From an uncultured Gammaproteobacteria bacterium (GTDB lineage Bacteria > Patescibacteriota > Microgenomatia > Levybacterales > UBA12049): a DNA stretch of 64,000 bases. Location of the stretch: the NCBI GenBank assembly GCA_964603935.1, contig CAZRWL010000001.1:2306-66305 (forward strand). The letters are read 5' to 3'. Under the pieces are notes generated by a model. That model was not told the DNA's origin, searched no databases, and saw nothing but the letters and a program-made list of their open reading frames with translations. The translations under genes and the position numbers were made by a program. Positions 319 through 42,986 of the stretch are shown here, piece after piece. How positions within the stretch are numbered: position 1 is the stretch's first letter; every line of letters starts with the position of its first letter.

Positions 319-684
319 ATGAATCGGAGAAAGCGGCCTTTTTGGCTTTTGGTTACTAGCCTTTTGTCTTTAGCCGGCATTATTTTTTTAATTAATTTTT
401 ACTCCCCATCAGCGCAATTTTCCTTGCCCCTCGGAGCCTTGGCAAAGGGGGGAATTTTCAATTTTCAATTTTCAATTCTTTCTGTTTTCTTTTTATTATT
501 TTTTACTTTCCTCTTGTCTCTTATCACTTATCTCCTACGTAGTTCTCGGAGGGCTTTCTTAATTGGATTTTTGACGATAATTTATCTTATTTTCCGCATG
601 CTTAATTTAAACAGCCCCTATTTTCTGCTCCTGCTCATCGCTCTTTTCGTGAGCCTTGAACTTTTCTTCAAAAAACAAGCATAA
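319..684 (+). CDS. Hypothetical small membrane protein (3-4 predicted TM helices); contains in-frame heptamer repeat
   Basis: 121-aa ORF, strongly hydrophobic. No recognisable family. Confidence 0.3.
   Translation: MNRRKRPFWLLVTSLLSLAGIIFLINFYSPSAQFSLPLGALAKGGIFNFQFSILSVFFLLFFTFLLSLITYLLRSSRRAFLIGFLTIIYLIFRMLNLNSPYFLLLLIALFVSLELFFKKQA
453..476. repeat. Heptanucleotide tandem repeat (AATTTTC)x3.4
   Basis: gaattttcaattttcaattttcaattc, translated in-frame as FNFQFSI within ORF 319-684. Confidence 0.9.
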
Positions 685-703
685 AATCTGATAAAATAGA
701 TTT

Positions 704-2143
704 GTGAATAAATTTTATATTACAACCGCAATTCCTTATGTTAATGCAGCTCCTCACATTGGACACGCTTTAGAATTTGTTCAGGCGGATGTTCTAACGC
801 GTTATAATAGAATCAAAGGGAACGAAATTTTACTTTTGTCAGGAGCGGACGAGAACGCTTTGAAAAATGTTCAGGCTGCGGAAAAAGCAAATTTGCCAAT
901 TCAGGAATTTATTGACAAAAACAGCGCTCTTTTTGCCGATCTTGCTAAAAAATTAAACATCAACTTTGACGTATTCCAAAAAGGCAGTGATCCAAAGCAT
1001 CATTCTTCTTCTCAAGCACTGTGGAATCTTTGTAATGCAAGCGGAGATATTTATAAAAAAATTTATACAGGACTTTATTGCGTAGGCTGTGAGTTGTTTT
1101 ACGAAAAAGAAGAATTAAATGAAGGGGGGGAATGCGCTGAGCACCCGGGGAAAAAACTTGACGAAGTTTCTGAAGAAAATTATTTTTTCCGCCTTTCAAA
1201 ATATGAAACGCAAATCAAAAAATTAATTGAAGATAATACTATTAATATAATCCCGGAAAATAGAAAAAATGAAATGCTGGCTTTTGTTAAACAAGGATTA
1301 AAAGATATCAGTATTTCAAGATCAAATGAACGGGCAAAGAATTGGGGAGTTTCGGTTCCCAATGATAATGCGCAAAAAATGTATGTTTGGTTTGACGCTC
1401 TTAATATTTACCAATCAGGAATTGGGTTTGGAGCGGACGAAAAAAAATATCACAAATGGTGGCCGGCAGACTTGCATGTTATCGGCAAGGGAATTTTGCG
1501 CTTTCATGCTATTTATTGGCCGGCATTTTTATTGTCCGCCAAACTTAAACTTCCCAAAGCTATTTTTGTCCACGAATACATCACTGTCAACGGACAAAAA
1601 ATGTCCAAGACTGTCGGGAATGTTTTAGACCCAATTCCTTTGATCGAGAAATACGGCGCAGATGCTTTGCGTTATTATCTGCTTGCAAAAATATCTCCAT
1701 TTTCCGATGGCGATTTTTCCGAAGAAAAATTCAAAGAAGTTTACAATGCAGATTTAGCAAATGGAATTGGAAATACAGTATCAAGAATTGCAAAACTAGC
1801 AGAAACTTCAGGATTAAACTTTGATGAAAAGAAAATTGCTGAAAAACTATATTCAGAAGAACTCGAAGATGCTTTTGAGGAATTTAGATTTAGCGATATT
1901 TTACAAAATCTTTGGAATGTTCGTCTTTTTCTTATTAACGAACATGTTAACCAACACAATCCATGGATTGAGCTTAAAAGAGATAAAAACAAATTCAAAA
2001 TTATCTTACAAGAAGAAATTAATATGTTAAGAGAATTTGCTAGACAAATTAAACCTTTTCTCCCCGAAACTTCCGCAAAAATCGAAGAACAATTTAAGGG
2101 ACCAAAAATCTCCTCCCAAAAACCTCTATTCCCTAGAGTATAA
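704..2143 (+). CDS. metG: Methionine--tRNA ligase (class I aaRS, short form lacking C-terminal tRNA-binding domain)
   Basis: HIGH motif (AAPHIGHA) and KMSKS motif (KMSKTVGN) are present, plus MetRS-like Zn-knuckle Cys (CVGCELF..GGECAEHPG). GTG start at 704. Confidence 0.9.
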   Translation: MNKFYITTAIPYVNAAPHIGHALEFVQADVLTRYNRIKGNEILLLSGADENALKNVQAAEKANLPIQEFIDKNSALFADLAKKLNINFDVFQKGSDPKHHSSSQALWNLCNASGDIYKKIYTGLYCVGCELFYEKEELNEGGECAEHPGKKLDEVSEENYFFRLSKYETQIKKLIEDNTINIIPENRKNEMLAFVKQGLKDISISRSNERAKNWGVSVPNDNAQKMYVWFDALNIYQSGIGFGADEKKYHKWWPADLHVIGKGILRFHAIYWPAFLLSAKLKLPKAIFVHEYITVNGQKMSKTVGNVLDPIPLIEKYGADALRYYLLAKISPFSDGDFSEEKFKEVYNADLANGIGNTVSRIAKLAETSGLNFDEKKIAEKLYSEELEDAFEEFRFSDILQNLWNVRLFLINEHVNQHNPWIELKRDKNKFKIILQEEINMLREFARQIKPFLPETSAKIEEQFKGPKISSQKPLFPRV

Positions 2144-2208
2144 ATCTTCTCTCCGGAAAATATAATTTTCTAGTAAAAAATATTTATTGACACAGCATGC
2201 GAGAATGT

Positions 2209-2234
2209 GCTTTAATGATTTAAATCATTAAAGC
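2209..2234. promoter_or_regulatory. 26-bp perfect palindrome GCTTTAATGATTTAAATCATTAAAGC immediately upstream of trpR-like gene (candidate operator)
   Basis: Perfect dyad symmetry, 4 bp before the ATG at 2238. An upstream TTGACA sits at 2186-2191. Confidence 0.5.
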
Positions 2235-5152: not shown

Positions 5153-5195
5153 CACGTTCGACTATCGCTCAGTGTCATAGTGAGGAATTCGAACT

Positions 5196-6689
5196 ATGAC
5201 TGCTTTCTTTCAAAAAGTATTTACACGCTATCCCATAAAGACAAAAAGATTTCTGGAAATACTCCCTGGAACCGTATCTTGGACATTAATTCTTTTTCCC
5301 GTATGGGGTTCGCTTCTAATACCATATATTGTCGCATATTTTATTTTATTCTTTGATGTTTATTGGTTTTACAAATCATTCTCGCTTGCAATCATGGCTT
5401 TCATCGCATCCAGGAAGATAAAAAAATCGGAAAATGAAAATTGGTTTAATAAAATTAAAACTCTTAAGAATTACCAAAAAATTAGCCATGTGGTAATAAT
5501 CCCGAATTATACCGAAACTGTAGGTAAGTTAAGAACAACTCTTAATTCAATTGCGTCCCAAACATTCCCTGCAAAAAGAATATTTGTAGTTCTAGGAATG
5601 GAAGAAAGAGAAAGTCAGGGAGCAGAACGAGCCAAAATACTAATTCGGGAATTTAAGAGCATATTTGGAGGAATATATGCTACGTATCATCCTGATATTC
5701 CAGGTGAAGTAAAAGGAAAATCGTCAAATCAGTCGTTTGCATCAAAAGAAATTTACAAAAAACTTATTCTTAAAAAAATCATTGATATAAATTATGCAAC
5801 CATATCTTCTGTTGACGCTGATTCGATTTTCGATAAACAATATTTTTCTTATTTGACATACGAATTTTTAACCGATCCCAAGCCGTACAATAGATTTTGG
5901 CAATCGGCAAATGTTAATCACAATAATTTTTGGAATGTGCCCGCGCCAATAAGAATTATCTCTTTTTTCGGTTCTCTTTGGAGAACGGCAGTATTAGTGC
6001 AGGGAGACAGGCTTATTTCCAATTCAACTTATTCGCTATCTTTCGCTCTACTTAAGAAAATAGACTTTTGGGATACGGACGTTATTCCGGAAGACTATAG
6101 AATTTTCTTCAAGGCGTTTTACAAACTTAACGGCAATGTATGGGCAAAGCCAATATTCCTAAAAACATCTATGGATTCTCCGCGGTCATCCAATTTTCTC
6201 AAAAGTCTTAAGAGTAAATATCAGCAAGAGCAAAGATGGTCTTGGGGCGCTTCCGATGACCCCGTATTTATTAAATGGTGGTTCACTGTCCCCAACGTCC
6301 CTTTTGCAAGAAAAACAATTATGCTTTTCCATGTTCTGTTTGATCATTTCCTTTGGCCTGTAAATTGGTTCATTATCACTATTTCCGCAAACATCATAAC
6401 TCTTGTAAATCCTATTTTTTCAAGAACAACTATTGGGTATATGTTACCTCGTTTGGCAGGATTTATTTTAACTTCTTGCACAATAGCTTTTATCTCCATG
6501 ATTATTATTGATTTCAGAAACAGACCAAAAGATCCTTCCGTTTCTAAAATTCGTCAATTTATTTTTCCTCTGGAATTCATCCTTCTGCCAATCGTAGGAT
6601 TTTTTCTATCCACTCTTCCTGCTTTAATCTCTCATACTCGGCTTATGTTTGGAAAAAGAATGGAATATAAAGTCACGGAAAAATTATGA
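5196..6689 (+). CDS. Processive family-2 glycosyltransferase (CesA/chitin-synthase-like) integral membrane protein
   Basis: VVIIPNYTE start of the GT-A domain, DAD(S) DxD motif, QQEQRWSWG (QxxRW) motif, N- and C-terminal TM helices. Confidence 0.65.
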   Translation: MTAFFQKVFTRYPIKTKRFLEILPGTVSWTLILFPVWGSLLIPYIVAYFILFFDVYWFYKSFSLAIMAFIASRKIKKSENENWFNKIKTLKNYQKISHVVIIPNYTETVGKLRTTLNSIASQTFPAKRIFVVLGMEERESQGAERAKILIREFKSIFGGIYATYHPDIPGEVKGKSSNQSFASKEIYKKLILKKIIDINYATISSVDADSIFDKQYFSYLTYEFLTDPKPYNRFWQSANVNHNNFWNVPAPIRIISFFGSLWRTAVLVQGDRLISNSTYSLSFALLKKIDFWDTDVIPEDYRIFFKAFYKLNGNVWAKPIFLKTSMDSPRSSNFLKSLKSKYQQEQRWSWGASDDPVFIKWWFTVPNVPFARKTIMLFHVLFDHFLWPVNWFIITISANIITLVNPIFSRTTIGYMLPRLAGFILTSCTIAFISMIIIDFRNRPKDPSVSKIRQFIFPLEFILLPIVGFFLSTLPALISHTRLMFGKRMEYKVTEKL

Positions 6690-8161
6690 CCCTTACAAAA
6701 ATTCTAAAAGGACTTGAGAGAAGCAAAGAATTCTGGTTTGCTATTTTAACCTTATTCTTATTCTTTATACTAAGACTCCCTTCACTTTTTGAACCTCTTT
6801 GGTACGGAGATGAAGGAATATATCAAACAATAGGATCCTCGTTGAATCATGGAAAGTTGCTTTATTCGGAGGTATTCGATAACAAACCGCCTCTTTTGTA
6901 TTGGCTATATTCCTTTCTTCGCTCCGATCAGTTCAGCGTAAGGCTTGCATCTCTTATGTTTGGCGCGCTTTCTGTCGGAGCATTTTTCCTATTATCAAGA
7001 AGGCTTTTCAAAGGCAAAAATAGTGCTTCTTGTCTGGCAACTCTTGTTTTTGCTATTTTATTTGGCTTACCAACGTTAGAAGGAAATATCGCAAATGCGG
7101 AAAACTTTATGCTGCTACCAATCCTAGTTGCTGCGTTCATAATTTCAAATTTCAAATTTCACCTGTCCCCAGCGGGGGAAATTTCAAATTTCAAATTATT
7201 TATAGCCGGGACTTTCCTGGGTATTGCTTTTCTTTTCAAGATTGTCGCAATTTTTGATCTAGCTGCTTTTACCATTTTTTATTTTATCGCTAATTATAAT
7301 TTACTAAAAAAGGGCGTTAAAATACGATCTATTATTGTCGGATTTGCGCTTCCAATACTTCTTATTGCTTTGTTTTTTATCCTTAATGGAACATTTGCAG
7401 ACTTTATAAGAGCTGCATTTATCTCTAATATCTCTTATGTTAGTTATGGAAACAGAATTGGCGCATTCCCCATTATTCTTTTTATAAAATTGATTATTTT
7501 AGGAATTTTTATTCTATATGTCTTTAAGGAAAAAGAGAAAATTAGTCAAGTTTATCTTTTTATTCTGACTTGGTTCGCATTCTCATTGTTCAACGCTTAC
7601 TTTCCCCAACGCCCATACACTCATTATCTATTAATTTTAATTCCAAGCCTATCTCTTCTGATAGGGTTAATTTTATTTGATAAAAAGTATCGAAAAACTA
7701 TAGCTGTTATTTTTTTAATAGCTTTATTAATTGTAATAAAAGGATTTGGTATTCCAAAATTTCACAAAAGCATTAACTATTATCAAAATTTCCTATCTTA
7801 TGCTAAAGGCGAAAAGACAATGAGCTCGTATCAGGAATTTTTTGACCGAAATACGCCATTTGATTATGAAATAGCGCGTTTTATTAAGCCCAAACTTACC
7901 AAGAACGAGACTATTTTTGTTTGGGGAAACAATGCTCAATTATATCAATTGACCAACACAATTGCTCCAGCAAAATATACTGTTGCATATCACACATCAA
8001 ATTATAGCGATGGAGAAATAAACACAAAAACAATGATTGAAAAAGCAAGACCAAAATTTATCGTATTAATGCCTAATCAGAAAGCACTTCCTTTTTCGCT
8101 TATAGGTTATTTTCAAATAATAGAAATTAACAAAACAATAATATATGAGAGATTTTTTTAA
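6686..8161 (+). CDS. GT-C fold membrane glycosyltransferase (ArnT/PMT, family 39/83-like)
   Basis: About 11 TM helices. PLWYGDEGIY and DNKPPLLYWL motifs are typical of polyprenyl-phosphate-sugar dependent GT-C enzymes. Confidence 0.55.
   Translation: MTLTKILKGLERSKEFWFAILTLFLFFILRLPSLFEPLWYGDEGIYQTIGSSLNHGKLLYSEVFDNKPPLLYWLYSFLRSDQFSVRLASLMFGALSVGAFFLLSRRLFKGKNSASCLATLVFAILFGLPTLEGNIANAENFMLLPILVAAFIISNFKFHLSPAGEISNFKLFIAGTFLGIAFLFKIVAIFDLAAFTIFYFIANYNLLKKGVKIRSIIVGFALPILLIALFFILNGTFADFIRAAFISNISYVSYGNRIGAFPIILFIKLIILGIFILYVFKEKEKISQVYLFILTWFAFSLFNAYFPQRPYTHYLLILIPSLSLLIGLILFDKKYRKTIAVIFLIALLIVIKGFGIPKFHKSINYYQNFLSYAKGEKTMSSYQEFFDRNTPFDYEIARFIKPKLTKNETIFVWGNNAQLYQLTNTIAPAKYTVAYHTSNYSDGEINTKTMIEKARPKFIVLMPNQKALPFSLIGYFQIIEINKTIIYERFF
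7141..7197. repeat. Heptamer repeat (AATTTCA)x3 - hairpin (TCCCCagcGGGGA) - (AATTTCA)x2.7
   Basis: aatttcaaatttcaaatttca cctgTCCCCagcGGGGAa atttcaaatttcaaatt, in-frame inside the GT-C gene, giving peptide ISNFKFHLSPAGEISNFKLF. Confidence 0.9.
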
Positions 8162-8498
8162 AGAAATAACGCAGGATAAAACCGTAACTTTAGTATACTT
8201 TATCAACGGATTTTTTATTATTTCGTCCGTTGTTCTTGTTTTATTTTTCTACAGACGCTTCCCCCCATTGATTCCAATTTTCAATCAGCTGCCATGGGGC
8301 GAGCAAAGACTGGGAACAACAATAACTATATTTATACCCATATTTGTGTCGCTGTCAATTTTGGTAAGCAATATTTTTATTTCGGCTTTAATCTACAAAA
8401 ATATTCCCCTCGCTGCCCGCATGCTCGCAGCCATTAGCCTTCTTATAGGAATACTTACGCTGCTTCTTGTTGTAAAAACTATTGCATTGACTGCTTGA
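8145..8498 (+). CDS. Hypothetical small membrane protein
   Basis: 117-aa hydrophobic ORF. No family recognised. Confidence 0.3.
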   Translation: MRDFFKEITQDKTVTLVYFINGFFIISSVVLVLFFYRRFPPLIPIFNQLPWGEQRLGTTITIFIPIFVSLSILVSNIFISALIYKNIPLAARMLAAISLLIGILTLLLVVKTIALTA

Positions 8499-8499
8499 T

Positions 8500-9549
8500 A
8501 TGACAATATTTTTTTCTTTTCTAACAGCATTTATTGCGACTATCATCGCAACACCTTTATCTATATTCATTATGAAAAAGATGAATATTATTGATGATCC
8601 AAAAATCCATAAGCATCCCGCAATAATTCATAAAAAACCTATTCCCCGAGGCGGAGGAATTCCTCTTTTTGCAGGAACTGTCTTGGCTGCAATATTTTTT
8701 CTGCCTCTTCCCAAAACCATGATTATGCTTTTCATCGCAGGATTTATTGCGCTTCTAATCGGCATTATAGATGATAAATATGATATTTCCCCATACTTAC
8801 GATTTCTTTCAAATATTGCAGTTGCAGGAATTGTCGTTGGAAGCGGAATAACTATTCCTTTCGTAACAAATCCATTGGGAGGAATATTGTATCTTGATTC
8901 AATGAGTCTCCCTTTTGGGCTCAAACTTCCCGACATGATTGCGATGCTTTGGATTATCTGGGTTATGAATATGTTAAACTGGAGCAAAGGAGTTGACGGC
9001 CAAATGCCCGGAATTGTAGCAATATCGGCAATCGTAATAGGACTCCTTGGTATTCGTCTCGCAGATCCCAGCCACACAAATCAAGTAAGCATAATGCTTT
9101 CTTTTATTATAGCCGGAGCATCGCTTGGATTCTTAGTATTTAATTATCATCCGGCGAGGATATTTCCCGGATATGGCGCCACTGCTATTTATCTCTTGCT
9201 TGGCGCGGCTTCTATTTTGTCCGGAGCAAAACTAGCAACAGCTATATTGGTAATGGGAGTGCCAATGGTGGATGGCGCATTCACGATAATACGCCGTCTT
9301 TTAACAGGGCGTTCTCCTTTCTGGCATGACAAAAAACATCTCCACCATCTGCTCTTAAGTCTTGGCATGGGACAGAAGCGTATCGCATTGTTTTATTGGA
9401 CAATCTCTGCTATATTAGGAGCGCTTGCTTTGGTTTTGTCAAGTCAAGCTAAGGCTTTTGCGATTATAATGCTTTTAATTGTATTAGGCGGAACATTGCT
9501 TTTTCTGCATTATGCTCTTGAAAACACCTATGACAAAAATCGCCTATAA
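8500..9549 (+). CDS. MraY/WecA-family (GT4) polyprenyl-phosphate N-acetylhexosamine-1-phosphate transferase
   Basis: About 10 TM helices. Motifs IIDDP, NMLNWSKGVDG (NxxNxxDGxDG) and the general MraY/WecA topology. Confidence 0.65.
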   Translation: MTIFFSFLTAFIATIIATPLSIFIMKKMNIIDDPKIHKHPAIIHKKPIPRGGGIPLFAGTVLAAIFFLPLPKTMIMLFIAGFIALLIGIIDDKYDISPYLRFLSNIAVAGIVVGSGITIPFVTNPLGGILYLDSMSLPFGLKLPDMIAMLWIIWVMNMLNWSKGVDGQMPGIVAISAIVIGLLGIRLADPSHTNQVSIMLSFIIAGASLGFLVFNYHPARIFPGYGATAIYLLLGAASILSGAKLATAILVMGVPMVDGAFTIIRRLLTGRSPFWHDKKHLHHLLLSLGMGQKRIALFYWTISAILGALALVLSSQAKAFAIIMLLIVLGGTLLFLHYALENTYDKNRL

Positions 9550-10477
9550 TACATTGCGATTGCTTAGGCCAAGGCAGTGGATAAAAAATACTGCAATATT
9601 TGCTGCGATAACATTTTCAGGCGATCTTTTCGAATGGGCAATCTTACAAAAAGTGCTATTTGCTTTTTTCGTATTCTGCGCCTTATCTTCCGCAAGCTAC
9701 ATAATCAATGATATTTTCGATGCAAAAAACGATAGGCTTCATCCATTCAAACGGTTTAGACCTATTGCAAGTAAAAACCTGACAACAAATTACGCATTAG
9801 CGTTTGCATTTTTTTTAATATTTATTTCTTTTGTATTGGGTATTATGGTCAATCCGGCATTTTTCATTATTCAAATTATATATTTGCTGACTCAATTCCT
9901 TTATTCCGCCTCCCTTAAATTAATTGCCGTTGTAGATATTCTGGCAATAGCTTTAGGGTACATATTGAGAGTTTATGCCGGAGAATTAGCCGGAGGATTT
10001 CACATATCGGTATGGCTTTTATTGACAACTATTTCCCTTTCGCTTTTTCTGGCAATTGGAAAAAGAAGATCGGAATTAACACTTGTTTCTCAAATTAAAT
10101 CCGTAAACATATCCGATGTGAGAAAAACCCTATCTCATTATTCCGAACGCTTATTGGATGTTTACGCCTCTATTTTCGCAACATCTACATTTGTTTCCTA
10201 TTCGCTTTTTACTTTTCTGGAAAATCCGCGGGGATTCAAACTCGGGCTTAGCATTTTTTTGCCTGATTTTTTGCCGGCCTTTTTCCAAAGAAAGTGGCTC
10301 ATGATAACAATAGTCCCTGTTGTTTACGGACTCATGAAATATCTTCAGGATATCTACGAAAAACACGAAGGTGAAAGCCCGGAAAGAGTATTGTTGTCAG
10401 ACAAGTCCTTGCTTGCATCCGTAATTATCTGGATTGTCTTAGTTATTACCATAATCTACTTAATCGGTCCCAATTAG
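9512..10477 (+). CDS. UbiA-family prenyltransferase resembling decaprenyl-phosphate 5-phosphoribosyltransferase (DPPR synthase)
   Basis: RPRQWIKN N-terminus, NDIFDAKNDRLHPFKRFRPIAS (NDxxDxxxD plus KRFRPIA) as in Rv3806c-type enzymes, 8-9 TM helices. The start may be the ATG at 9530. Confidence 0.65.
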   Translation: MLLKTPMTKIAYNTLRLLRPRQWIKNTAIFAAITFSGDLFEWAILQKVLFAFFVFCALSSASYIINDIFDAKNDRLHPFKRFRPIASKNLTTNYALAFAFFLIFISFVLGIMVNPAFFIIQIIYLLTQFLYSASLKLIAVVDILAIALGYILRVYAGELAGGFHISVWLLLTTISLSLFLAIGKRRSELTLVSQIKSVNISDVRKTLSHYSERLLDVYASIFATSTFVSYSLFTFLENPRGFKLGLSIFLPDFLPAFFQRKWLMITIVPVVYGLMKYLQDIYEKHEGESPERVLLSDKSLLASVIIWIVLVITIIYLIGPN

Positions 10478-25125: not shown

Positions 25126-27477
25126 ATGAATTTTTCCGACTTTTTATCCGTTGTGCAATGGTGGACAGTAATTTTTATTATTGGAGCTATTTTTATTCCA
25201 ATAACGAATTTAATTCTTTCAAATTTTTTTGACAAAGGCTATATTTTTTCAAAAATTATAGGGACAGCTGCAATAAGTTACGCTGTTTTTGTTCTCGGAT
25301 TTTTAAAAATCCTCCCCTTCACTCAAGCAACAATCTTTATTGTAATTGCCTTATTTGCAGGTATAAATATACTAATTTTCAAAAAAAAAATAAAGTTAGC
25401 AATTAAACAATTTGACAATGAAGCAATTAAAATAATTATCTTCGAAGAGGCTCTTTTTTTGGGAGTTCTATTTTTCTGGTCTTTTATTCACGCTCATCAG
25501 CCAGACATTCATGGTTTGGAAAAATACATGGATTACGGATTTATTAATTCGATATTGAGAGCCAAATATTTCCCGCCTCTAGATATGTGGTTTACTCCAT
25601 TCTCAATTAATTATTATTATTTCGGCCATTTAGTTACAGCCGTGCTAACAAAATTGTCCCTCCTTCCCTCACCAATTACTTTTAACCTAATGCTCTCGAC
25701 AATTTCTGCGCTATCTTTTGTTTCCGCTTTCTCAATCGGAGCTAATCTTTTCAAGATTTTAATGAACAAGGGACGGGTGGCAAAAGAGGAAGGGCTCCCG
25801 ACCCCACTTCGCTTGAAAGCTTCGAGGGGCAAAACAACGCTAGAGTCAGCGGGCTTGCCAGCCGTAGCTTTAGCGAAGGTTGGAGGGAAACTTTTGACAG
25901 GACCCGTCCTCGCAGGACTTTTGACGGCATTTATTTTAAACTTTGCGGGAAATTTACATACCCTGCATCTATTCTTTAAGCCTTATCTTAATGAAAATCC
26001 TGTGCCTTTTTGGAATTTAATATTCTCCCCCCAAACATTCCCCAATAATTATTGGTATCCAAATGCAACGCGTTTTATTGAAAATACGATCCACGAATTT
26101 CCCATTTATTCCTCTGTTGTTTCCGATCTTCACGGCCACTTCCTGGATCTCCCTTTTGTTTTACTAACAATAGCCATTCTCTTATCGCTAGTACTAAAAT
26201 CGCAAATCACAAATCACAAATCACAAATAAACCTTAATGTTCAAAATTCAAAACGTTTTGGATTTTTTAATTTTAGAAATTTGAATTTATTTGGAACTTG
26301 GAATTTTGAATTTAGAATTTTATTGCTGGCATTTTTGCTGGCAATAATGTATATGACGAATGCTTGGGACGGAATAATCTATTTCATACTAGCTACTCTT
26401 ATTATTGGCTATACTATTCTAAAATCACTAATTAATCCTTCAGAAATTAAAAATGCAAAATTCAAAAATTTTATTACTTTATTTATTCCCAAGATTTTAT
26501 TATTAGGATTCTTCTTTTTTCTATTCTCTCTACCCTTTAATTTAAATTTCAAGCCTTTTGCTTCCGCAATTGGCATACTTTGCGCGCCGGATTTCTTAGT
26601 GCGTTTGGAAAAATTCGGACCTTTCATTTTTGAAGCGAATCATTGCCAGCACTCTCCCGTATGGCAGTTATTTATTCTTTATGGCTTCTTTTACTTTTGG
26701 GTAGTTTCGTTCGTTATATTTCTTTTTAAAAATTTAAAAACAAAAATTGAAAATTTATCAGTATCCGATATATTCGTTGGAATTCTGATAATATTATCTA
26801 CCCTGCTTATTATTATCCCTGAATTTATCTATGTAAAAGATATTTATCCCGCGCACTACCGCGCCAATACGATGTTCAAGCTCGTTTATGAATCCTTCAT
26901 TATGCTTTCGTTAGCCTCGGGCTACATCGTAATAAGAATAATTAATAGTTTCAAATTTGTTTATTTGTTTATTGGCAGTATTGGATTATTCCTCGTAATG
27001 GTCTATCCTTATTTTGCGATTAAATCTTATTTTGGAGATTTAAAGGCTTACTCCGGACTTAATGGAACAAACTACCTTAAGCCGCTTTATCCTCAGGACT
27101 ACGATGCTATTTTATGGATAAATAAAAATATCAAAGGACAACCTGTAATTTTGGAAGCTCAAGGCGACTCGTACACGGATTATGGACGTATATCTACTAA
27201 TACCGGATTGCCGACAGTTTTGGGCTGGACTGTTCACGAATGGCTTTGGCGCGGCGCCTATGATATTCCAGCCCCAAGAATTGCGGAAATCGCAGAAATG
27301 TATGAGTCTAAAAACCCTAAGGAAACAAAAAAATTATTAAAAAAATATAACGTATCGCTTGTATTTTTGGGCGACCTTGAACGGCAAAAATATCTCAATC
27401 TTAACGAAGAGAAATTTAACTCATTTGGAAAAATAATTTACCAAAACAACCAGACAAAAATTTACAAAATTAATTAG
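25126..27477 (+). CDS. Large polytopic membrane protein of the YYY (TIGR03662/DUF2298) family
   Basis: SINYYYFGH motif and more than 15 TM helices. Contains a GC-rich insert (25765-25920) and variant heptamer repeats (26197-26320). Confidence 0.55.
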   Translation: MNFSDFLSVVQWWTVIFIIGAIFIPITNLILSNFFDKGYIFSKIIGTAAISYAVFVLGFLKILPFTQATIFIVIALFAGINILIFKKKIKLAIKQFDNEAIKIIIFEEALFLGVLFFWSFIHAHQPDIHGLEKYMDYGFINSILRAKYFPPLDMWFTPFSINYYYFGHLVTAVLTKLSLLPSPITFNLMLSTISALSFVSAFSIGANLFKILMNKGRVAKEEGLPTPLRLKASRGKTTLESAGLPAVALAKVGGKLLTGPVLAGLLTAFILNFAGNLHTLHLFFKPYLNENPVPFWNLIFSPQTFPNNYWYPNATRFIENTIHEFPIYSSVVSDLHGHFLDLPFVLLTIAILLSLVLKSQITNHKSQINLNVQNSKRFGFFNFRNLNLFGTWNFEFRILLLAFLLAIMYMTNAWDGIIYFILATLIIGYTILKSLINPSEIKNAKFKNFITLFIPKILLLGFFFFLFSLPFNLNFKPFASAIGILCAPDFLVRLEKFGPFIFEANHCQHSPVWQLFILYGFFYFWVVSFVIFLFKNLKTKIENLSVSDIFVGILIILSTLLIIIPEFIYVKDIYPAHYRANTMFKLVYESFIMLSLASGYIVIRIINSFKFVYLFIGSIGLFLVMVYPYFAIKSYFGDLKAYSGLNGTNYLKPLYPQDYDAILWINKNIKGQPVILEAQGDSYTDYGRISTNTGLPTVLGWTVHEWLWRGAYDIPAPRIAEIAEMYESKNPKETKKLLKKYNVSLVFLGDLERQKYLNLNEEKFNSFGKIIYQNNQTKIYKIN
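26197..26320. repeat. Variant heptamer repeats (AAATCAC)x4 followed by AATTTTGAATTT-type degenerate units
   Basis: aaatcgcaaatcacaaatcacaaatcacaaataaa ... ttgaatttatttggaacttggaattttgaatttagaatttt, in-frame, giving peptide KSQITNHKSQIN... Confidence 0.8.
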
Positions 27478-28540: not shown

Positions 28541-29198
28541 TTTTTATAATTTCCAAAAATTCTAAGACACCAAGACTTGCTGTTCCAACCCCTACGCCGT
28601 CTATATGAGGCATTGCGGTAAAAGATGATACATTTCCGGGATTCACGCTCCCGCCATACAAAACAACTTTTACGGGATTGTTACTCTTTGTAAATTCAGC
28701 AACTTCATTGGCATTACGAGGATTATCCGGAATGCCCGTACCAATTGCCTCTATTGGCTCGTATAGCACAATATCTGTATTTTTGGGTACAAACGTATTT
28801 CTGCTTTGAATGCAAAAAATTGAAATTAAATTATTGGCTTTGGCTAAATTAACTTTACGTTCCAACATCTCATCGTTTTCTAAAAAATTTTTTCTTCTTT
28901 CGGAATGTCCAATAATTACATAGTCCGCTAATTCCTTTATTTGCTTTGCGTTGATTTCGCCGGTATACGCTCCTTCACTAAAAGGCGAGATGTTTTGCGC
29001 TCCCAGCTTTATATTCAATTTGTGATTTAAGATATAAGATTTAAGAATGGGAAGAAGCGTAAAAGGCGGACAAATAATGATTTCCTTCCCTGAAATTGAA
29101 AATTGAAAATTGAAAATTGAAAATTTATGGAGCCAATCTTTAGCTTCAGATTCGGTTTTATTGGACTTCCAATTGGCAATAATATAGAGTTTTTTCAT
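28533..29198 (-). CDS. tpiA: Triosephosphate isomerase with in-frame heptamer-repeat insertion
   Basis: ANWKSN, IIGHSERR, YEPIEAIGTG and YGGSV motifs. The inserted loop FSIFNFQFSISGKE is encoded by (GAAAATT)n at 29091-29126. Confidence 0.85.
   Translation of the reverse strand: MKKLYIIANWKSNKTESEAKDWLHKFSIFNFQFSISGKEIIICPPFTLLPILKSYILNHKLNIKLGAQNISPFSEGAYTGEINAKQIKELADYVIIGHSERRKNFLENDEMLERKVNLAKANNLISIFCIQSRNTFVPKNTDIVLYEPIEAIGTGIPDNPRNANEVAEFTKSNNPVKVVLYGGSVNPGNVSSFTAMPHIDGVGVGTASLGVLEFLEIIKNA
29091..29126. repeat. Heptanucleotide tandem repeat (GAAAATT)x5 (= AATTTTC on coding strand) inside tpiA
   Basis: tgaaattgaaaattgaaaattgaaaattgaaaattt. Confidence 0.9.
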
Positions 29199-29233: not shown

Positions 29234-31099
29234 ATGAATAAGGACTTTCTCAAGGACTTAAACCCTGAGCAGCAAAAGGCAGTTTTAGCTACTGAGGGTC
29301 CAATTATTATTCTGGCAGGCGCGGGCTCGGGAAAAACCCGTGTTCTAACTTACAAAGTCATGTACTTAACAAAAGAGAAAGATGTAAATCCTTTTAATAT
29401 TCTCATGATAACTTTTACCAATAAAGCAGCCAATGAGATGAAAGAACGCGTGCGGCAATCTCTTACTAATGACCAAAGACTAACGACTAGAGACCAGCCT
29501 GCAATCGCTACTTTTCATTCTCTCTGCGCGAAAATCTTAAGAATTGAAGGTAAATACATAGGTCTTCCCCCGCAATTTGCGATTTACGATACTCAAGACC
29601 AAATAGATGCAGTAAAAGAAGCTATGAGAAGGCTTGACATATCAATAAAAGATTACAAACCGTCATCAGTCTTAGCCAATATATCTCAAGCAAAAAATGA
29701 ACTTATAAACGAATCCGAATATCCAAAATACGCAAGGGGTAATTTTCAGGAAAAAGTTGCAAAAATTTATTTTATTTACCAAAAAGTTTTGTCTGAAAAT
29801 AGCGCGCTTGATTTTGACGATCTTCTTGCAAAAACGGTATTTTTATTTGAAAACAATCCTCGAATTCTTCAGAAATATCAGAATCGTTTTCAGTACATAT
29901 TAATTGACGAATATCAGGATACAAACAAAGCGCAATATATTTTGACCAAATATTTAGCTAAAAAATGGAATAATATTTGCGTTGTAGGAGATTTCTCTCA
30001 AAGCATTTATTCATGGAGAGGCGCTGACTTTACCAATCTCACTCGTTTTAAGGAAGATTTCAAAAATACGAAAACATTTTCCCTTTCTCAAAACTATCGC
30101 TCTACACAAAAAATCTTGGATGCTGCATCATCTGTAATCTCTAAAAATACTACTCATCCAGTTCTGACTCTTTGGACGGAAAATTCGGAAGGTGAAGAAG
30201 TTTCAATCTTTGAAGCGCGAAATGAACAACAGGAAATAGAATTTATTGTAAATCAAATTTCAACCCTTCGGCTCCGCTCAGAGCAAGATTTTAAATATTC
30301 GAATATTGCGGTACTGTATAGAACCAATGCTCAATCGCGAATTTTGGAAGAAATTTTCCTGCATAACAGCATTCCCTATATACTTATTGGGGGAACAAGG
30401 TTTTATGAAAGAAAAGAAATTAAAGACGTACTTGCTTATTTAAGAAATCTTAACAACAAAAGCGATAAAATTTCATTAAAGCGCATAGAAAAAATTGGCA
30501 AAAGAAAAATGGAAAAATATTTAGAATTTTCCCGTGAACGGGATCCCGATGCTTCGGGACAAGAAACTATCGAGCTTCTAGACGACGTCCTTAAACAAAC
30601 AGAATATCTTAAATTGTATGACGAAAAAGACGAAGAAGATAGACAAAGACTGGAGAATATTAAGGAACTTCGCTCTGTTGCCCTCAATTTTCCAGACTTA
30701 ACAAATTTCCTGGAAAATGTTTCCCTCGTAGAACAAGAGTATTTACCTGATAACGCCAATGGTCAAAACAAAAAAGATGCGGTAACTTTTATGACTTTAC
30801 ACGCAGCAAAAGGCTTGGAATTCCCTTATGTATTTATGATTGGGATGGAAGAAGGGTTATTTCCCCATTCCCGGTCGCTAATGGACAAACATGCGCTTGA
30901 AGAAGAGAGAAGACTTTGTTATGTTGGAATGACCAGAGCTCGCGAAAGACTTTTTTTAACTTATGCCAGAAGAAGAATTTTCTTTGGACAGAAAATTTCA
31001 AATGTTATTTCCAGATTCGTGTTGGAATTGCCAAGAAATGTAATCGAACAAAATATTCATGCAATCAGCAAGGAAAGCGATACGCAAGATTATTTATGA
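29234..31099 (+). CDS. pcrA: UvrD/PcrA-family ATP-dependent DNA helicase
   Basis: Walker A AGAGSGKT, LNPEQQKAV, and helicase motifs through the C-terminal domain. Confidence 0.85.
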   Translation: MNKDFLKDLNPEQQKAVLATEGPIIILAGAGSGKTRVLTYKVMYLTKEKDVNPFNILMITFTNKAANEMKERVRQSLTNDQRLTTRDQPAIATFHSLCAKILRIEGKYIGLPPQFAIYDTQDQIDAVKEAMRRLDISIKDYKPSSVLANISQAKNELINESEYPKYARGNFQEKVAKIYFIYQKVLSENSALDFDDLLAKTVFLFENNPRILQKYQNRFQYILIDEYQDTNKAQYILTKYLAKKWNNICVVGDFSQSIYSWRGADFTNLTRFKEDFKNTKTFSLSQNYRSTQKILDAASSVISKNTTHPVLTLWTENSEGEEVSIFEARNEQQEIEFIVNQISTLRLRSEQDFKYSNIAVLYRTNAQSRILEEIFLHNSIPYILIGGTRFYERKEIKDVLAYLRNLNNKSDKISLKRIEKIGKRKMEKYLEFSRERDPDASGQETIELLDDVLKQTEYLKLYDEKDEEDRQRLENIKELRSVALNFPDLTNFLENVSLVEQEYLPDNANGQNKKDAVTFMTLHAAKGLEFPYVFMIGMEEGLFPHSRSLMDKHALEEERRLCYVGMTRARERLFLTYARRRIFFGQKISNVISRFVLELPRNVIEQNIHAISKESDTQDYL

Positions 31100-32031
31100 A
31101 AGACGATTTGCCCAGTCATCCCCTGCAATCAAAGGAATGGGGAGAATTTAGAAAAAAAACAGAAGTCAAAGTAATTAGAATAGGTGGAGTTCAAATGACA
31201 GTCCACAAAATTCCCCATATGCCTTGGACAATCGGCTATGTACCAAAAGGACCTTTGCCTACGCAAGATATGATTTCCGATCTCAAAAAAATTGGCAAAC
31301 AGGAAAAATGCATTTTTATTCAACTAGAACCCAACGCCTCAAAAATTTCAAATTTCAAATTTCAAATTTCAAATTTGGGGCTTCGGCCGTCTGTTCATCC
31401 TCTTTTTACCAAATATACCTTCATTCTTGATCTGACAAAATCAGAAGAAGAATTATTAAAAGCAATGCATCCGAAAACTCGTTACAACATCAAAGTAGCG
31501 CTTAAACATGGTGTTAAAATTGTTGAAGATAATTCGGACGGGACATTTGAAACTTATTTAGATCTCACAAAAGAAACAACCAAGCGTCAAGGTTTTTATG
31601 CACACACAGAAATGTACCATCAGCTAATGTGGGATACTCTTAAAAATAAGATAGCTCACTTACTTTTGGCAAAATATGGGAAGCAAACGCTGGCGGCGTG
31701 GATTTTATTTGTTTACAAAGATACCCTTTATTACCCATATGGAGCTTCCTCAAGCTTACATAGAGAAACAATGGCATCCAATCTAATGATGTGGGAAGCA
31801 ATAAGGTTTGGAAAAAAATTAGGTCTTAAAAGATTTGACATGTGGGGAGCGCTAGAGCCAAATCCGGACAAGAATGATTCCTGGTATGGATTTCACAAAT
31901 TTAAAGAAGGGTATGGACCGCAACATGTGGAGTTTTTAGGAAGCTTCGACCTGATTATAAACCCCGTGCTTTATCAACTCTATAAAATATTAGACAAGAT
32001 TAGATGGATATTTCTAGGGCTTAAAAAATGA
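31096..32031 (+). CDS. FemAB-family peptidoglycan interpeptide-bridge aminoacyltransferase (start corrected; ATGA overlap with helicase stop)
   Basis: PLQSKEWGEFRK N-terminus and FemX-like GNAT-fold C-terminal half. The upstream extension of ORF 30916 lies inside the helicase gene and is rejected. Contains the in-frame repeat peptide KISNFKFQISNLG. Confidence 0.7.
   Translation: MKDDLPSHPLQSKEWGEFRKKTEVKVIRIGGVQMTVHKIPHMPWTIGYVPKGPLPTQDMISDLKKIGKQEKCIFIQLEPNASKISNFKFQISNLGLRPSVHPLFTKYTFILDLTKSEEELLKAMHPKTRYNIKVALKHGVKIVEDNSDGTFETYLDLTKETTKRQGFYAHTEMYHQLMWDTLKNKIAHLLLAKYGKQTLAAWILFVYKDTLYYPYGASSSLHRETMASNLMMWEAIRFGKKLGLKRFDMWGALEPNPDKNDSWYGFHKFKEGYGPQHVEFLGSFDLIINPVLYQLYKILDKIRWIFLGLKK
31341..31376. 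repeat. Heptanucleotide tandem repeat (AAATTTC)x5 inside FemAB-family gene
   Basis: aaaaatttcaaatttcaaatttcaaatttcaaattt, followed by ggggcttcggcc. Confidence 0.9.
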
Positions 32032-39405: not shown

Positions 39406-40248
39406 ATGATTGCAACTCCGGAAAAAATAAAAGATCTTGATCTTAAAGCAGATAAAATAAGACAGCTTATTATTGAAATGCTTTTGGAGGCAGGCTCGGG
39501 ACATTCGGCAGGACCCTTGGGAATGGCAGATATCTTTACTGCTTTTTATTTTCATATTCTAAACCATGATCCTAAAAACCCAAGTTTGCCTGACCGAGAC
39601 AGATTAGTTTTATCCAACGGACACATTTGTCCCGTTCAATATGCAGCTATGGCTTTAGCAGGATATTTCCCCATTGAGGAATTAAAAACTTTGCGAAAAA
39701 TAAATTCCCGGCTGCAAGGACATCCCCACAGAACCTCCCTTCCGGGAATTGAAACAACTTCCGGACCCCTTGGTGAAGGATTATCTCAAGCGATCGGAAT
39801 TGCCTTAGCCGGAAGACTGGATAATAAAAATTACAAAGTGTACTGCTTAACATCAGATGGCGAACATGAAGAAGGAAATACTTGGGAAGCGGTGATGTTT
39901 GCCGCGAAAAATAAGTTAAATAATTTAATTCAAGTTATAGACCGCAATTATATTCAAATTGATGGCAACACGGAAAATGTTATGCCTCTTGATCTCCTAA
40001 AAGCAAAATACGAATCATTTAATTGGAACGTTATTGAAGTAGACGGAAATGATATTAAGAGTTTTATTGAGGCAGTTGAAAAAGCAAAATTAGCAACAGA
40101 CAAACCCACCATTATAATTGCCAAAACAATTCCGGGAAAAGGAGTAAGCTTTATGGAAAATGATTATCATTGGCATGGCAAACCGCCAAACAAAGAAGAA
40201 GCAAAGAAAGCTCTCGAAGAGCTTCGTAGTTCAAAATTTAAAATTTAA
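39406..40248 (+). CDS. Transketolase, N-terminal (TPP-binding) subunit
   Basis: GSGHSAGPLGMADI, LSNGH and GEHEEGNTWEA motifs. Split tkt. Confidence 0.85.
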   Translation: MIATPEKIKDLDLKADKIRQLIIEMLLEAGSGHSAGPLGMADIFTAFYFHILNHDPKNPSLPDRDRLVLSNGHICPVQYAAMALAGYFPIEELKTLRKINSRLQGHPHRTSLPGIETTSGPLGEGLSQAIGIALAGRLDNKNYKVYCLTSDGEHEEGNTWEAVMFAAKNKLNNLIQVIDRNYIQIDGNTENVMPLDLLKAKYESFNWNVIEVDGNDIKSFIEAVEKAKLATDKPTIIIAKTIPGKGVSFMENDYHWHGKPPNKEEAKKALEELRSSKFKI

Positions 40249-40257
40249 AATTATACT

Positions 40258-41250
40258 ATGTTGAATCCTGATTTGAAACTTAACCAAAAATTATTTGATG
40301 CTGACGCAGAAATTAAACCTACCCGCGCAGGTTATGGAGAAGGACTTTTGGAGCTTGGCGGAAAAAATCCCAATATTGTTGCTCTTTGCGCTGATTTAAC
40401 AGAATCAACCTACGCTCATCTTTTTGCGGAGAAATATCCCGAAAGATTTTTCCAAGTCGGAGTTGCCGAGCAAAATATGGCTGCAATCGCAGCGGGTCTT
40501 GGAGTAAGCGGAAAAATTCCCTTTATTTCTTCGTACGCAACTTTTTCTCCGGGCAAAAACTGGGAAACTATCAGAACAACTATTGCCTATAACAACTCTA
40601 ATGTGAAAATTGCCGGACACCACGCAGGAATAATGACCGGTCCGGATGGCGCAACTCACCAGGCAACCGAGGACATTGCAAGCATCAGATCCTGGCCGAA
40701 TATAAAAATTCTTGCTCCTTGCGACAGTATTGAGGCAAAAAAAGCAACAATTGCAGCCGGAGAAACAAACGGCCCTGTTTATCTCAGATTCTCCAGAGAT
40801 AAAACTCCAATAATCACAACGCAGGATTCGCCTTTTGAAATAGGTAAGATTCAAATTTTTTGGACTAGTGATACTCCAATTGCAACAATTCTTGCAATGG
40901 GCTACATGCTCCATTACGCGCTGGTTGCTGCAAAGGAGTTAGAGCAAGAAGGAGTTAGAGTGCTGGTTGCAAATGCTTCAACTGTCAAACCTTTGGATGA
41001 AGAAGCTGTTTTTTCCCTTGCTAAAAGGACCGGCGCTTTTGTTACAGTTGAGGATCACCAGGTTATGGGCGGACTGGGAGGAACGATCGCAGAATATTTG
41101 GCTAAAAATGTTCCAACACCAATGGAATTTATCGGTCTTCAGGACACCTTTGCGGAATCAGGAAATCCAAAAGAATTAATTGAAAAGTATGGAATGGGAG
41201 TTCAGGCAATAAAACAAGCAGTGAAAAAAGTAATCGCCAGAAAAATATAA
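40258..41250 (+). CDS. Transketolase, C-terminal (pyrimidine-binding + C-terminal domain) subunit
   Basis: GVAEQNMAAIAAGL and PDGATHQATEDIA motifs. Confidence 0.85.
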   Translation: MLNPDLKLNQKLFDADAEIKPTRAGYGEGLLELGGKNPNIVALCADLTESTYAHLFAEKYPERFFQVGVAEQNMAAIAAGLGVSGKIPFISSYATFSPGKNWETIRTTIAYNNSNVKIAGHHAGIMTGPDGATHQATEDIASIRSWPNIKILAPCDSIEAKKATIAAGETNGPVYLRFSRDKTPIITTQDSPFEIGKIQIFWTSDTPIATILAMGYMLHYALVAAKELEQEGVRVLVANASTVKPLDEEAVFSLAKRTGAFVTVEDHQVMGGLGGTIAEYLAKNVPTPMEFIGLQDTFAESGNPKELIEKYGMGVQAIKQAVKKVIARKI

Positions 41251-41333
41251 TTTTCAATTTGAAATTTAAAATTTGAAATGAAAATTTAATTTTAAAAATT
41301 CAATGAAAATTAAAAATTGAAAATTTAAAATTA
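41251..41333. repeat. Degenerate A/T heptamer repeat tract (GAAATTT/GAAAATT-like units) in intergenic region
   Basis: ttttcaatttgaaatttaaaatttgaaatgaaaatttaattttaaaaattcaatgaaaattaaaaattgaaaatttaaaatt. Confidence 0.6.
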
Positions 41334-42986
41334 ATGGAAAATAATCTTATTGATCAAATCAAAACCATAATCAAAGGGGATGTCTTAGGAGATGAAAAAA
41401 CTCTTCAGGAATATTCCCATGATGCCAGTCTTTTTGAAGTAAAACCCCAAGCAGTCGTCTTCCCAAAAGACGTGGAGGATATAAAAAAACTGGTTAAATT
41501 TGTATCGGAAAATAAGAAAAGCAATCCCTCGCTTTCTCTAACCGGAAGATCTGCGGGAACAGATATGGGAGGAGGGTCTATCAATGATTCTATCATTGTG
41601 GAATTTAATAAATATTTTAATCATACCCCGCAAATAAACGGTACTGTTGCCACAACAGAACCCGGTGTTTTTTATCGGGATTTTGAAAAAGAAACATTAA
41701 AACACAACCTTATTTTTCCTTCTTATCCTGCGTCCAGAGAAATCTGCGCAATGGGCGGAATTTTGAATAATAATTCCGGCGGAGAAAAATCACTGCAATA
41801 TGGAAAAACAGAAAAATACATTGAGGCAATGAAAGTTGTATTAAGTGATGGAAATATTTACGAGTTCAAAAAACTCTCAGAACAGGAGCTCCAAGAAAAA
41901 ATATCGCTCAAAACATTTGAAGGCAAAATTTACAGAAAGATATATAAACTCATTATTGATAACCAAGATAAGATTAGCAAAGCCAAACCTAATGTTTCTA
42001 AAAATTCCGCAGGATACTATCTATGGAATGTTTACGACAGGGAGAAGAAAACTTTTGACCTAACGCAGTTATTTGTCGGAGCACAAGGGACATTAGGACT
42101 TCTGACGGAAGCAAAGGTTAAGCTTGTCCCCGTACCCATACACCGGGAGATGGAAATTATTTTCCTGCGCGATCTTGCACATTTAGGAGAGATTATTGAT
42201 GCAGCCTTATCTTTGCAGCCGGAAAGTTTTGAGTCATATGACGATAACACGCTAAAACTGTCTCTGAGATATTTCCCTGAATTCGCTCACCAGCTGGGCA
42301 TTGCCGGACTTATCCAGGCAGGCATAGCGTTTCTGCCGGCATTTTTACAAATGCTTATCGGCAGACTTCCAAAATTGGTTCTGCAAATTGATTTTGCCGG
42401 AAATGATCTTAGCGAACTTAAGAAAAAAATAGATACTCTGCATGCAAAGCTTAAACCCTTTCACCCTCAAACACGTATCGCAATTGACGATCAGGAAAAA
42501 AAATATTGGCTGGTCAGACGGGAAAGTTTTAATTTGCTGCGCAAAAAAATCAGAAACAAACACACCGCGCCTTTTATTGATGATTTCGTAATCAACCCGC
42601 ATCAAATTGCAGAAGTCATTCCAAAAGTAACTTCAATTTTGAAAAAATATCCGGAATTTATTTTCACTGTGGCAGGTCATGTCGGCAATGGAAATTTCCA
42701 TATTATTCCATTGGCTGATATTACAAACAAAAAAGTACGTCAGGCCATCCCAATTATTGCCGACAAGACTTACGATATTATTGCCGAATATAAAGGTTCT
42801 ATAACCGGAGAGCATAATGATGGACTTATCCGTACCCCCTATTTGAAACAAATGTATGGCGAAAAAATAATAAAAATTTTCGAAGAGGTTAAAAATATTT
42901 TCGATCCCCAAAACATCTTTAATCCCAGAAAAAAAGTTTTTGGAGATTTGGATTTCGCCCTAAACCACATCAGAGAAAATTGGTAA
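41334..42986 (+). CDS. FAD-linked oxidase (GlcD/D-lactate dehydrogenase family)
   Basis: FAD-binding PCMH-type N-terminus (LTGRSAGTDMGGGS) and a C-terminal FAD-oxidase domain. Confidence 0.6.
   Translation: MENNLIDQIKTIIKGDVLGDEKTLQEYSHDASLFEVKPQAVVFPKDVEDIKKLVKFVSENKKSNPSLSLTGRSAGTDMGGGSINDSIIVEFNKYFNHTPQINGTVATTEPGVFYRDFEKETLKHNLIFPSYPASREICAMGGILNNNSGGEKSLQYGKTEKYIEAMKVVLSDGNIYEFKKLSEQELQEKISLKTFEGKIYRKIYKLIIDNQDKISKAKPNVSKNSAGYYLWNVYDREKKTFDLTQLFVGAQGTLGLLTEAKVKLVPVPIHREMEIIFLRDLAHLGEIIDAALSLQPESFESYDDNTLKLSLRYFPEFAHQLGIAGLIQAGIAFLPAFLQMLIGRLPKLVLQIDFAGNDLSELKKKIDTLHAKLKPFHPQTRIAIDDQEKKYWLVRRESFNLLRKKIRNKHTAPFIDDFVINPHQIAEVIPKVTSILKKYPEFIFTVAGHVGNGNFHIIPLADITNKKVRQAIPIIADKTYDIIAEYKGSITGEHNDGLIRTPYLKQMYGEKIIKIFEEVKNIFDPQNIFNPRKKVFGDLDFALNHIRENW

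Follow-up and report, generated by a model that had tools for sequence, protein, structure and literature searches.

Short tandem arrays of heptanucleotides are dispersed through conserved genes of a 64,000-nt stretch of contig CAZRWL010000001.1 (assembly GCA_964603935.1; this whole stretch is referred to here as the window), where they are translated in frame as part of the host proteins. An initial annotation had proposed such a family, built on the units AAATTTC and AATTTTC, and the proposal is borne out by eight perfect period-7 arrays in the window, where shuffled sequence gave 0.07 on average and never more than one. We give about an even chance to the reading that these tracts are genome-wide heptanucleotide microsatellites, tolerated and translated in permissive protein segments, and passengers rather than switches. 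The segments that accept them, termed slots here, are structurally tolerant and keep their position across the phylum while the repeat unit differs between lineages, and the arrays within them range from perfect to decayed. The size differences observed between slots are steps of 7 aa (three units, 21 nt), genes that are otherwise nearly identical can differ in a whole slot, and GC-rich inserts of 18-30 nt lie inside arrays, immediately after ...TTTC.

The best named homologues of the triosephosphate isomerase (TPI), FemAB and GT39 proteins shared 60-77% identity and belonged to Candidatus Levybacteria (Microgenomates, candidate phyla radiation (CPR)/Patescibacteria), and the GC content of the window was ~36% up to 46 kb. 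The host is a groundwater bacterium, and a small genome is typical of its group. Five syntenic Levybacteria loci with the gene order DUF2298-LytR-TIM-UvrD-FemAB were compared, and the Levybacteria loci cited here are L001, L002 and L205-L211; all comparisons rest on consensus assemblies.

Enrichment and coding context of period-7 arrays

Arrays were called with Tandem Repeats Finder and an exact scan, with at least 2.5 units required of a perfect array, and the null model consisted of 100 dinucleotide-preserving shuffles of the window. The initial annotation had allowed that the repeats might be no more frequent than an AT-rich genome would produce by chance, but period 7 alone was in excess, and periods 4-6 and 8-12 showed no excess in the window over the shuffles. 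Across 190 kb of Levybacteria DNA, period-7 arrays occurred at 14.7 per 100 kb compared with 1.9 per 100 kb in 695 kb of unrelated metagenome contigs, while other periods ranged from 0 to 3.7 per 100 kb in two reference sets. These contigs came from a metagenome scan with a TPI alignment, which returned generic TPIs (30-39% identity) rather than Levybacteria and served as the background for repeat density. Long open reading frames (ORFs) held 25 of the 28 Levybacteria arrays and 91% of the bases, indicating that the arrays are not depleted from coding DNA. All intragenic arrays were translated in frame, with starts falling in all three codon phases.

Host genes identified by Pfam encode TIM, FemAB, PMT_2 (GT39), DUF2298 and a small membrane protein, with LepA as an additional host. 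The gene identities given by the initial annotation agree with these assignments, its tract positions were reproduced to within 1-2 nt and its peptides NFKFQIS and FNFQFSI are correct translations, while the LepA (GATGGAA)4.4 array, the second TPI array and (AAATTAA)5 at 63858-63892 are additions to its inventory. Independent assemblies from Logan, NCBI, ENA and JGI carried the same arrays at orthologous positions, which are therefore not assembly artefacts. An origin in assembly or polishing, or in chance within an AT-rich genome, is extremely improbable in the face of these four independent sources and of an excess over the shuffles that is specific to period 7. No RNA family was found at any array in Rfam, and no description of heptamer units of this type, or of heptamer repeats in CPR, was found in the literature searched.

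Loci of other phyla, seeded on (AAWTTTC)3 and comprising the at least 120 matches listed in a genome scan, had a period-7 density of 14.5 per 100 kb among those matches when the seeded array was left out. Only 37% of their arrays, among the matches listed, fell in long ORFs, which made up 85% of the bases; most were intergenic, the placement also published for the repeats of Xanthomonas and Nostoc (PMC4692102). Tracts of (AATTTTC)n or (AAATTTC)n with 3-11 units occurred in many phyla among these matches, including Bacteroidales, Thermoanaerobaculia, Saprospiraceae, Acidobacteriota and Saccharibacteria, again mostly between genes, and the loci listed were also rich in further heptamer arrays. 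Inverted array pairs ~30-250 nt apart were seen in L084, L086 and L106. The idea that (AATTTTC)n arrays of other phyla trail GC hairpins was rejected, as strong folds were present in 12% of upstream flanks and in 16% of random segments.

Orientation and in-frame stop codons

Over three tandem copies a heptamer passes through all three reading frames, and only a unit that is cyclically free of stop codons can therefore be translated throughout. Both AAATTTC and AATTTTC are cyclically stop-free, and their reverse complements give TGA in every frame once at least three units are present. The uniform orientation of the arrays relative to their host genes, which the initial annotation had pointed out, is explained by the TGA codons that the opposite strand would carry; it is a selection filter and says nothing about mechanism. 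Where neither strand of a unit contains a stop, as with AAATTGG/AATTTCC, both orientations were found, in FemAB of L205 and TPI of L207. In addition, slot 2 of the window TPI reads TTAAATC TTATATC TTAAATC, with the changed unit exactly where TAA would be in frame, and slot 2 of the L206 TPI reads GTTAGAA GTTAGAA GTCAGAA, with the changed unit exactly where TAG would be in frame. In each case one substitution removes the residual in-frame stop, and the tracts are repeats at the DNA level.

Slots in FemAB and triosephosphate isomerase

The FemAB slot is flanked by the conserved motifs FIQLEPN and LRPxxHPLF and measures 34-39 nt in all five genomes, irrespective of the unit that fills it (Table 1). 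Across 120 orthologues, slot peptides were the translations of the units listed and of further ones (ISNFKFQISNLG, KNWKLEIGNWKL, MANGKWQMANLG, MEDGKWKMEELG and QLPNYPITQLPN), and some FemAB proteins were exactly 7 aa shorter than others (for example, VKQMANGKWQMANLG versus AKQMANLG); P0171 and P0167 differ by such a step. A neighbour-joining tree of FemAB with the slot removed was star-like. Elsewhere in L207, an octamer array of the TTTTTGGA type at 5535-5564 occupies a slot that holds heptamers in sister genomes.

TPI contains two slots. Slot 1 carries perfect arrays in four loci, namely (AATTTTC)3-4 in the window, L001 and L002 (62-64% aa identity to one another) and (AATTTCC)3 in L207. Its period-7 tract has decayed in L205, L206 and L208. 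Slot 2 of L206 holds (GTTAGAA)n. In a structural model of the window TPI (predicted local distance difference test score, pLDDT, 91), array 1 runs from the end of helix 1 through the loop that precedes strand 2, where model confidence is lowest, and array 2 is predicted to lie inside surface helix 2. The expectation that the repeats sit in surface loops therefore holds in part for array 1, which also takes in a helix end, and fails for array 2. Two further features adjoin TPI genes in other loci: a diversity-generating retroelement (RVT_1 reverse transcriptase and bAvd) lies between TIM and UvrD at 5574-6937 in L206, and an ORF of the LAGLIDADG type (weak Pfam match) adjoins TPI at 1157-1969 in L001.

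A probably recombined slot in LepA

Relative to the Aquifex LepA structure 2ywe, the LepA array adds ~6 aa to a loop of domain II. The window and L210 copies of this gene are 97-100% identical over most of their length, yet the slot holds (GATGGAA)4.4 in one and (AAATTTC)5 in the other. High identity returns precisely where the array ends on its 3' side, while the ~200 nt upstream of it show 67-80% identity per 60-nt block, and this combination of a sharp edge and a divergent upstream segment points to recombination at the slot. The simplest reading is that homologous recombination imported a different slot allele, and the two genomes as a whole form a mosaic of 72-99% identity.

LepA also contains a second hypervariable loop, in the G domain (17820-17929, minus strand), which differs completely between the window and L210 and has an extra 33 nt in the window, with identical sequence on either side; L210 carries at this place a copy of element Y, described below. 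A glycosyltransferase region (5194-10470, versus 1390-6753 in L210) shows 72-75% identity, with 98-99% directly upstream and 94% in GroEL, a pattern that may represent either a recombination mosaic or a variable glycosylation island.

GT39, DUF2298 and the small membrane protein

Most GT39 orthologues (475-479 aa) lack an array, some are 7 aa longer and some have an array-insert-array structure; its absence from most marks the GT39 array as a derived insertion. It falls between membrane helices, in a loop. The incomplete GT39 protein P0246 was considered as a possible break or frameshift at the array and proved to be a truncation at a contig end, elsewhere in the gene. DUF2298 has several array slots, and its (AAATCAC) array belongs to a 32-aa insertion relative to four orthologues. 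The small membrane protein belongs to a family of ~111 aa in which the FNFQFSI peptide is conserved among orthologues, those without the GC-rich insert described below reading ...QLSI FNFQFSI....

GC-rich inserts within and beside arrays

The initial annotation had noted G-rich hairpins flanking several tracts as a hint of a miniature element. Two of the GC-rich segments of the window, at 423-452 and 7161-7178, are indeed inserts that split arrays, while a third, GGGGCTTCGGCC after the FemAB array, was rejected as an element, as it consists of the conserved codons G-L-R-P and is present in all orthologues. Deleting the 7161-7178 insert restores a perfect GT39 array, the array and insert together fold as a long hairpin (z = -5.1), and in L210 the units on either side of the orthologous copy are decaying. 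The insert at 423-452 is absent from most orthologues and is similar to a stretch of the DUF2298 insert in reverse complement, although the match is weak (score 33 versus a shuffle maximum of 25, n = 300). Taken alone, the hairpin of 423-452 and that of the L002 insert were not significant. The DUF2298 insert is absent from four orthologues, and L208 has an (AAATTCA) array in that slot.

Related mini-inserts were found in different genes of different Levybacteria. Element X, CCCTCC(AAT)TCGG(C/T)GGGCAGGC, occurs in TPI of L002 and FemAB of L211 and, inverted, in the N-terminus of the PMT gene of L205 and L207, always within arrays and directly after ...TTTC on its own strand. Element Y, found in UvrD in the window, has near-identical copies in LepA of L210 and in UvrD of L209, the latter at another position, which is empty in the window and holds a related 8-aa insert in L208. 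It thus occupies three unrelated sites, is read in three different frames and is not always flanked by arrays. The copies of X (three unrelated gene sites) and of Y (three) lie in different genomes. The inserts at 423-452 and 7161-7178 follow TTTC and an insert in L209 TPI follows TTAC, and in all, seven of seven array-embedded inserts follow one or other of these motifs, in a small sample with boundaries ambiguous by ~1 nt.

The filled TPI site of L002 and the empty site of L001 have equal numbers of heptamer units, indicating that element X makes no 7-bp target duplication; for this element, such a duplication is thereby ruled out as the origin of the arrays. Viral contigs scanned for element X gave only chance matches in GC-rich phages, outside any array context. 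On the best reading of these patterns, the small GC-rich inserts are mobile and have sites in common with the arrays.

Table 1 Heptamer arrays and GC-rich inserts of the window, with the FemAB slot units of four further Levybacteria loci.
Locus	Position	Strand	Feature	Gene or context	Translation or remark
Window	416-422	+	lone AATTTTC unit	small membrane protein gene, left of GC-rich insert	read from sequence
Window	423-452	+	30-nt GC-rich in-frame insert CTTGCCCCTCGGAGCCTTGGCAAAGGGGGG	splits small membrane protein array	LPLGALAKGG
Window	453-477	+	(AATTTTC)3.6	small membrane protein gene 319-684	GIFNFQFSI
Window	7141-7160	+	(AAATTTC) array, left half	GT39/PMT_2 gene 6686-8161	
Window	7161-7178	+	18-nt GC-rich insert ACCTGTCCCCAGCGGGGG	splits GT39 array at unit boundary	CCCC/GGGG hairpin
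Window	7179-7197	+	(AAATTTC) array, right half	GT39/PMT_2 gene	
Window	17191-17221	-	(GATGGAA)4.4	LepA	EDGRWKMEDGK
Window	25771-25905	+	~135-nt (40 aa) GC-rich in-frame hairpin insert	DUF2298	-60 kcal/mol, z = -2.6
Window	26197-26228	+	(AAATCAC)4.6	DUF2298	KSQITNHKSQI
Window	26264-26321	+	degenerate period-7/14 array, TTTTGAA / AATTTGA type	DUF2298	
Window	29024-29046	-	(TTAAATC)-type array	TPI slot 2	
Window	29093-29125	-	(AATTTTC)4.7 (AAATTGA on + strand)	TPI slot 1	KFSIFNFQFSIS
Window	30264-30284	+	element Y CCCTTCGGCTCCGCTCAGAGC	UvrD, heptamer-like flanks	TLRLRSEQ
Window	31343-31376	+	(AAATTTC)4.9	FemAB slot	KISNFKFQISNL
Window	40233-40252	+	(AAAATTT)2.9	last codons and stop of transketolase N-terminal-half gene	
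Window	41251-41334		degenerate heptamer arrays, both orientations	intergenic	imperfect hairpins, z = -2.4
Window	63858-63892		(AAATTAA)5	just upstream of intron-interrupted tRNA-like gene	
L208			AAATTTC, 4.9 copies	FemAB slot	
L205			AAATTGG, 5 copies	FemAB slot	
L206			AATGGCA, 4.7 copies	FemAB slot	
L207	10254-10292		octamer CAATTACC, 4.8 copies	FemAB slot	

Other features of the window

The C-terminus of the transketolase N-terminal half, where an array spans the end of the gene, is unlike that of the L208 orthologue. Promoter-like matches at the intergenic arrays of 41251-41334 were not above chance. The tRNA-like gene next to (AAATTAA)5 (63570-63852, minus strand) is split by a group I intron (Rfam RF00028, 88.6 bits, 63616-63806), and ARAGORN made no call for it. 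Two giant ORFs of 2483 and 2116 aa on the minus strand (45482-59304) encode Ig-like, HYR, RTX and animal haem peroxidase domains in a region with a GC content of 43-48%, compared with ~36% in the rest of the window, and may form an acquired surface-protein island.

Origin of the arrays and alternative explanations

If the arrays are passengers, they would begin as chance two-unit proto-repeats in AT-rich DNA and would grow, and be re-homogenised, by slipped-strand mispairing or unequal exchange, perhaps aided by the quasi-palindromic AAATTT core. Selection would purge every frame-breaking change, homologous recombination between lineages would move slot alleles, and the outcome would be hypervariable peptide patches. 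Several observations weigh against this account. Slippage gives no reason for a period of 7, and the frame-safe periods 6 and 9 are not enriched. Growth from two to five units is impossible in one simple slip, and single-unit intermediates frameshift genes such as TPI. Perfect arrays at one old slot in several lineages imply regeneration faster than point mutation, despite which no length polymorphism was seen among close relatives in the 90%-identity clusters. Finally, the same few units recur in different genes and genomes, which could point to a sequence-specific factor.

An alternative is an active process, driven by an element or enzyme, in which arrays and GC-rich mini-inserts form one mobile system; we regard this as possible but doubtful. 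Here a sequence-specific enzyme would insert hairpin mini-elements 3' of TTTC or TTAC with no target duplication, in the manner of single-strand HUH/Y1 transposases (IS200/IS605, PATE, REP-RAYT) or through some other heptamer-specific activity, and arrays would arise or be renewed through that activity or one linked to it. Such a process is favoured by the period-7 specificity that slippage leaves unexplained, and it fits the constant placement of element X in arrays after TTTC, the TTTC or TTAC preceding both array-embedded inserts of the window and the L209 TPI insert, the lack of a 7-bp duplication in L002 versus L001, and the presence of element Y at three unrelated sites in three frames. 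However, no transposase or other candidate enzyme was identified in a scan that covered part of the window proteins, the copies of X and Y were seen in different genomes and not several within one, and the element boundaries carry their ~1-nt ambiguity. As Y is not always array-flanked, common tolerant segments could explain part of the association, and inserts that make no target duplication cannot themselves generate heptamer arrays. A broader form of the idea, which we advance tentatively, is that Levybacteria, and possibly other heptamer-rich lineages, have an unrecognised sequence-specific mechanism that writes or renews 7-nt arrays and inserts 18-30 nt GC-rich hairpins after TTTC. Were this true, the mechanism would continually remodel tolerant segments of TPI, LepA, UvrD and FemAB, and it would be a coding-region counterpart of the short tandemly repeated repetitive (STRR) sequences and small dispersed repeats (SDR) of cyanobacteria and a lead to the over-representation of heptamers among bacterial repeats.

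The arrays could also be functional cis-elements, that is, DNA or RNA signals within genes such as sites for nucleoid proteins, cruciforms, ribosome pausing or -1 frameshifting at A_AAT_TTC, and AAATTTC does match the X_XXY_YYZ slippery pattern of -1 frameshifting. The recurrence of the same few units in many genes and in intergenic DNA, the inverted pairs formed by intergenic arrays and the presence of (AATTTTC)n in many phyla are all consistent with such a signal. It is nevertheless unlikely, as the unit in a slot changes completely between lineages (AAATTTC, AAATTGG, AATGGCA, GATGGAA or an octamer), which argues against a sequence-specific site, and the arrays begin in all three codon phases with promoter-like matches no more frequent than chance. 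A search for programmed -1 frameshift sites found no overlapping -1 ORF, and the host genes are single continuous frames with full-length homology and no alternative-frame ORFs. The initial annotation had instead likened the arrays to contingency loci, in which they would act as hypermutable on/off switches through gain or loss of units. Its premise is sound, since 7 is not a multiple of 3 and a change of one unit inside an ORF would frameshift the host gene; several hosts are envelope-related (GT39, FemAB, DUF2298 and the small membrane protein), and the quasi-palindromic AAATTTC arrays could promote slippage. Of the dispensable surface or restriction genes that would be expected as hosts, GT39, FemAB and DUF2298 are suitable examples, but the single-copy housekeeping genes TPI and LepA are not, and the tracts have just 3-5 units. 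Moreover, every assembled orthologue is in frame, and the slots stay in frame across a phylum-wide radiation. Ten clusters of FemAB, GT39 and TPI sequences from consensus assemblies, formed at 90% identity, contained no variants of plus or minus 7 aa, and the lengths of their full-length members agreed to within one residue. Slot peptides were compared in three of these clusters and did not differ within them. Short cluster members, considered as possible frameshifts at arrays, were truncations at contig ends. With no length variation in close relatives and with TPI and LepA among the hosts, the analogy finds no support, and a switching function is very unlikely.

Comparison with known repeat systems

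Classical contingency loci include the tetranucleotide repeats of Haemophilus and Neisseria and the 7-bp repeats in hmw promoters. The Levybacteria arrays resemble them in having units that are not a multiple of three, inside or beside genes, but differ in being short, located in housekeeping genes, always in frame and free of observed length variation among close relatives. Rickettsia palindromic elements (RPE) are reportedly selfish palindromes of 100-150 bp inserted in frame in conserved genes. The DUF2298 insert is similar in kind, as in-frame hairpin DNA that adds a peptide at a tolerant position; RPE are not tandem heptamers, however, and bear no sequence relation to the arrays. In Nostoc, mobile elements of 21-27 nt are said to lie within tandem heptamer repeats. 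The inserts at 423-452 and 7161-7178 and element X in L002, L211, L205 and L207, at 18-30 nt and embedded in heptamer arrays, share this size and setting with the SDR of Nostoc punctiforme, which are reportedly hairpin-prone elements of ~20-30 nt inside heptamer arrays and near-identical at unrelated loci. The Levybacteria inserts belong to another phylum, are unlike those SDR in sequence and all lie in frame within protein-coding genes, and Y is also found outside arrays.

The persistence of array sites across the phylum while their sequence turns over is of interest because coding DNA normally either loses repeats whose unit length is indivisible by three or employs them as switches, and here they are tolerated in essential enzymes of a reduced genome. 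The arrays are a source of hypervariable peptide patches and of small mobile inserts in CPR core proteins. For annotators and for alignment-based phylogenies they call for caution, as the patches are DNA-level repeats and not homologous residues. They also provide a natural system for asking why a period of 7 is favoured in bacterial repeats, a question still open in 2015 (PMC4692102).

Dispersed heptamer repeats have been described by Rehm et al. (2015, PMC4692102), with the unit GGGAATC for Xanthomonas and GGGGA(C/T)T for Nostoc, and that article also cites the over-representation of heptameric repeats in many bacteria and the STRR of Calothrix and Nostoc (Mazel et al. 1990, as cited in PMC4692102). 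Like STRR-type repeats, the Levybacteria arrays are tandem 7-nt units, typically in 3-5 or more copies, with genome-specific units dispersed widely and at a density well above background. The Xanthomonas and Nostoc families are G-rich, capable of forming quadruplexes, and more frequent than expected in non-coding DNA but less so in ORFs (PMC4692102). In contrast, the Levybacteria units are AT-rich and not of the G-rich, quadruplex-capable kind (AAATTTC, AATTTTC, AAATCAC and GATGGAA), and their arrays show no preference for non-coding DNA, being translated in phylum-conserved slots of what is likely a small genome. They are best read as an AT-rich variant, tolerated in coding DNA, of the heptamer families of cyanobacteria and Xanthomonas, with small mobile GC-rich inserts alongside.

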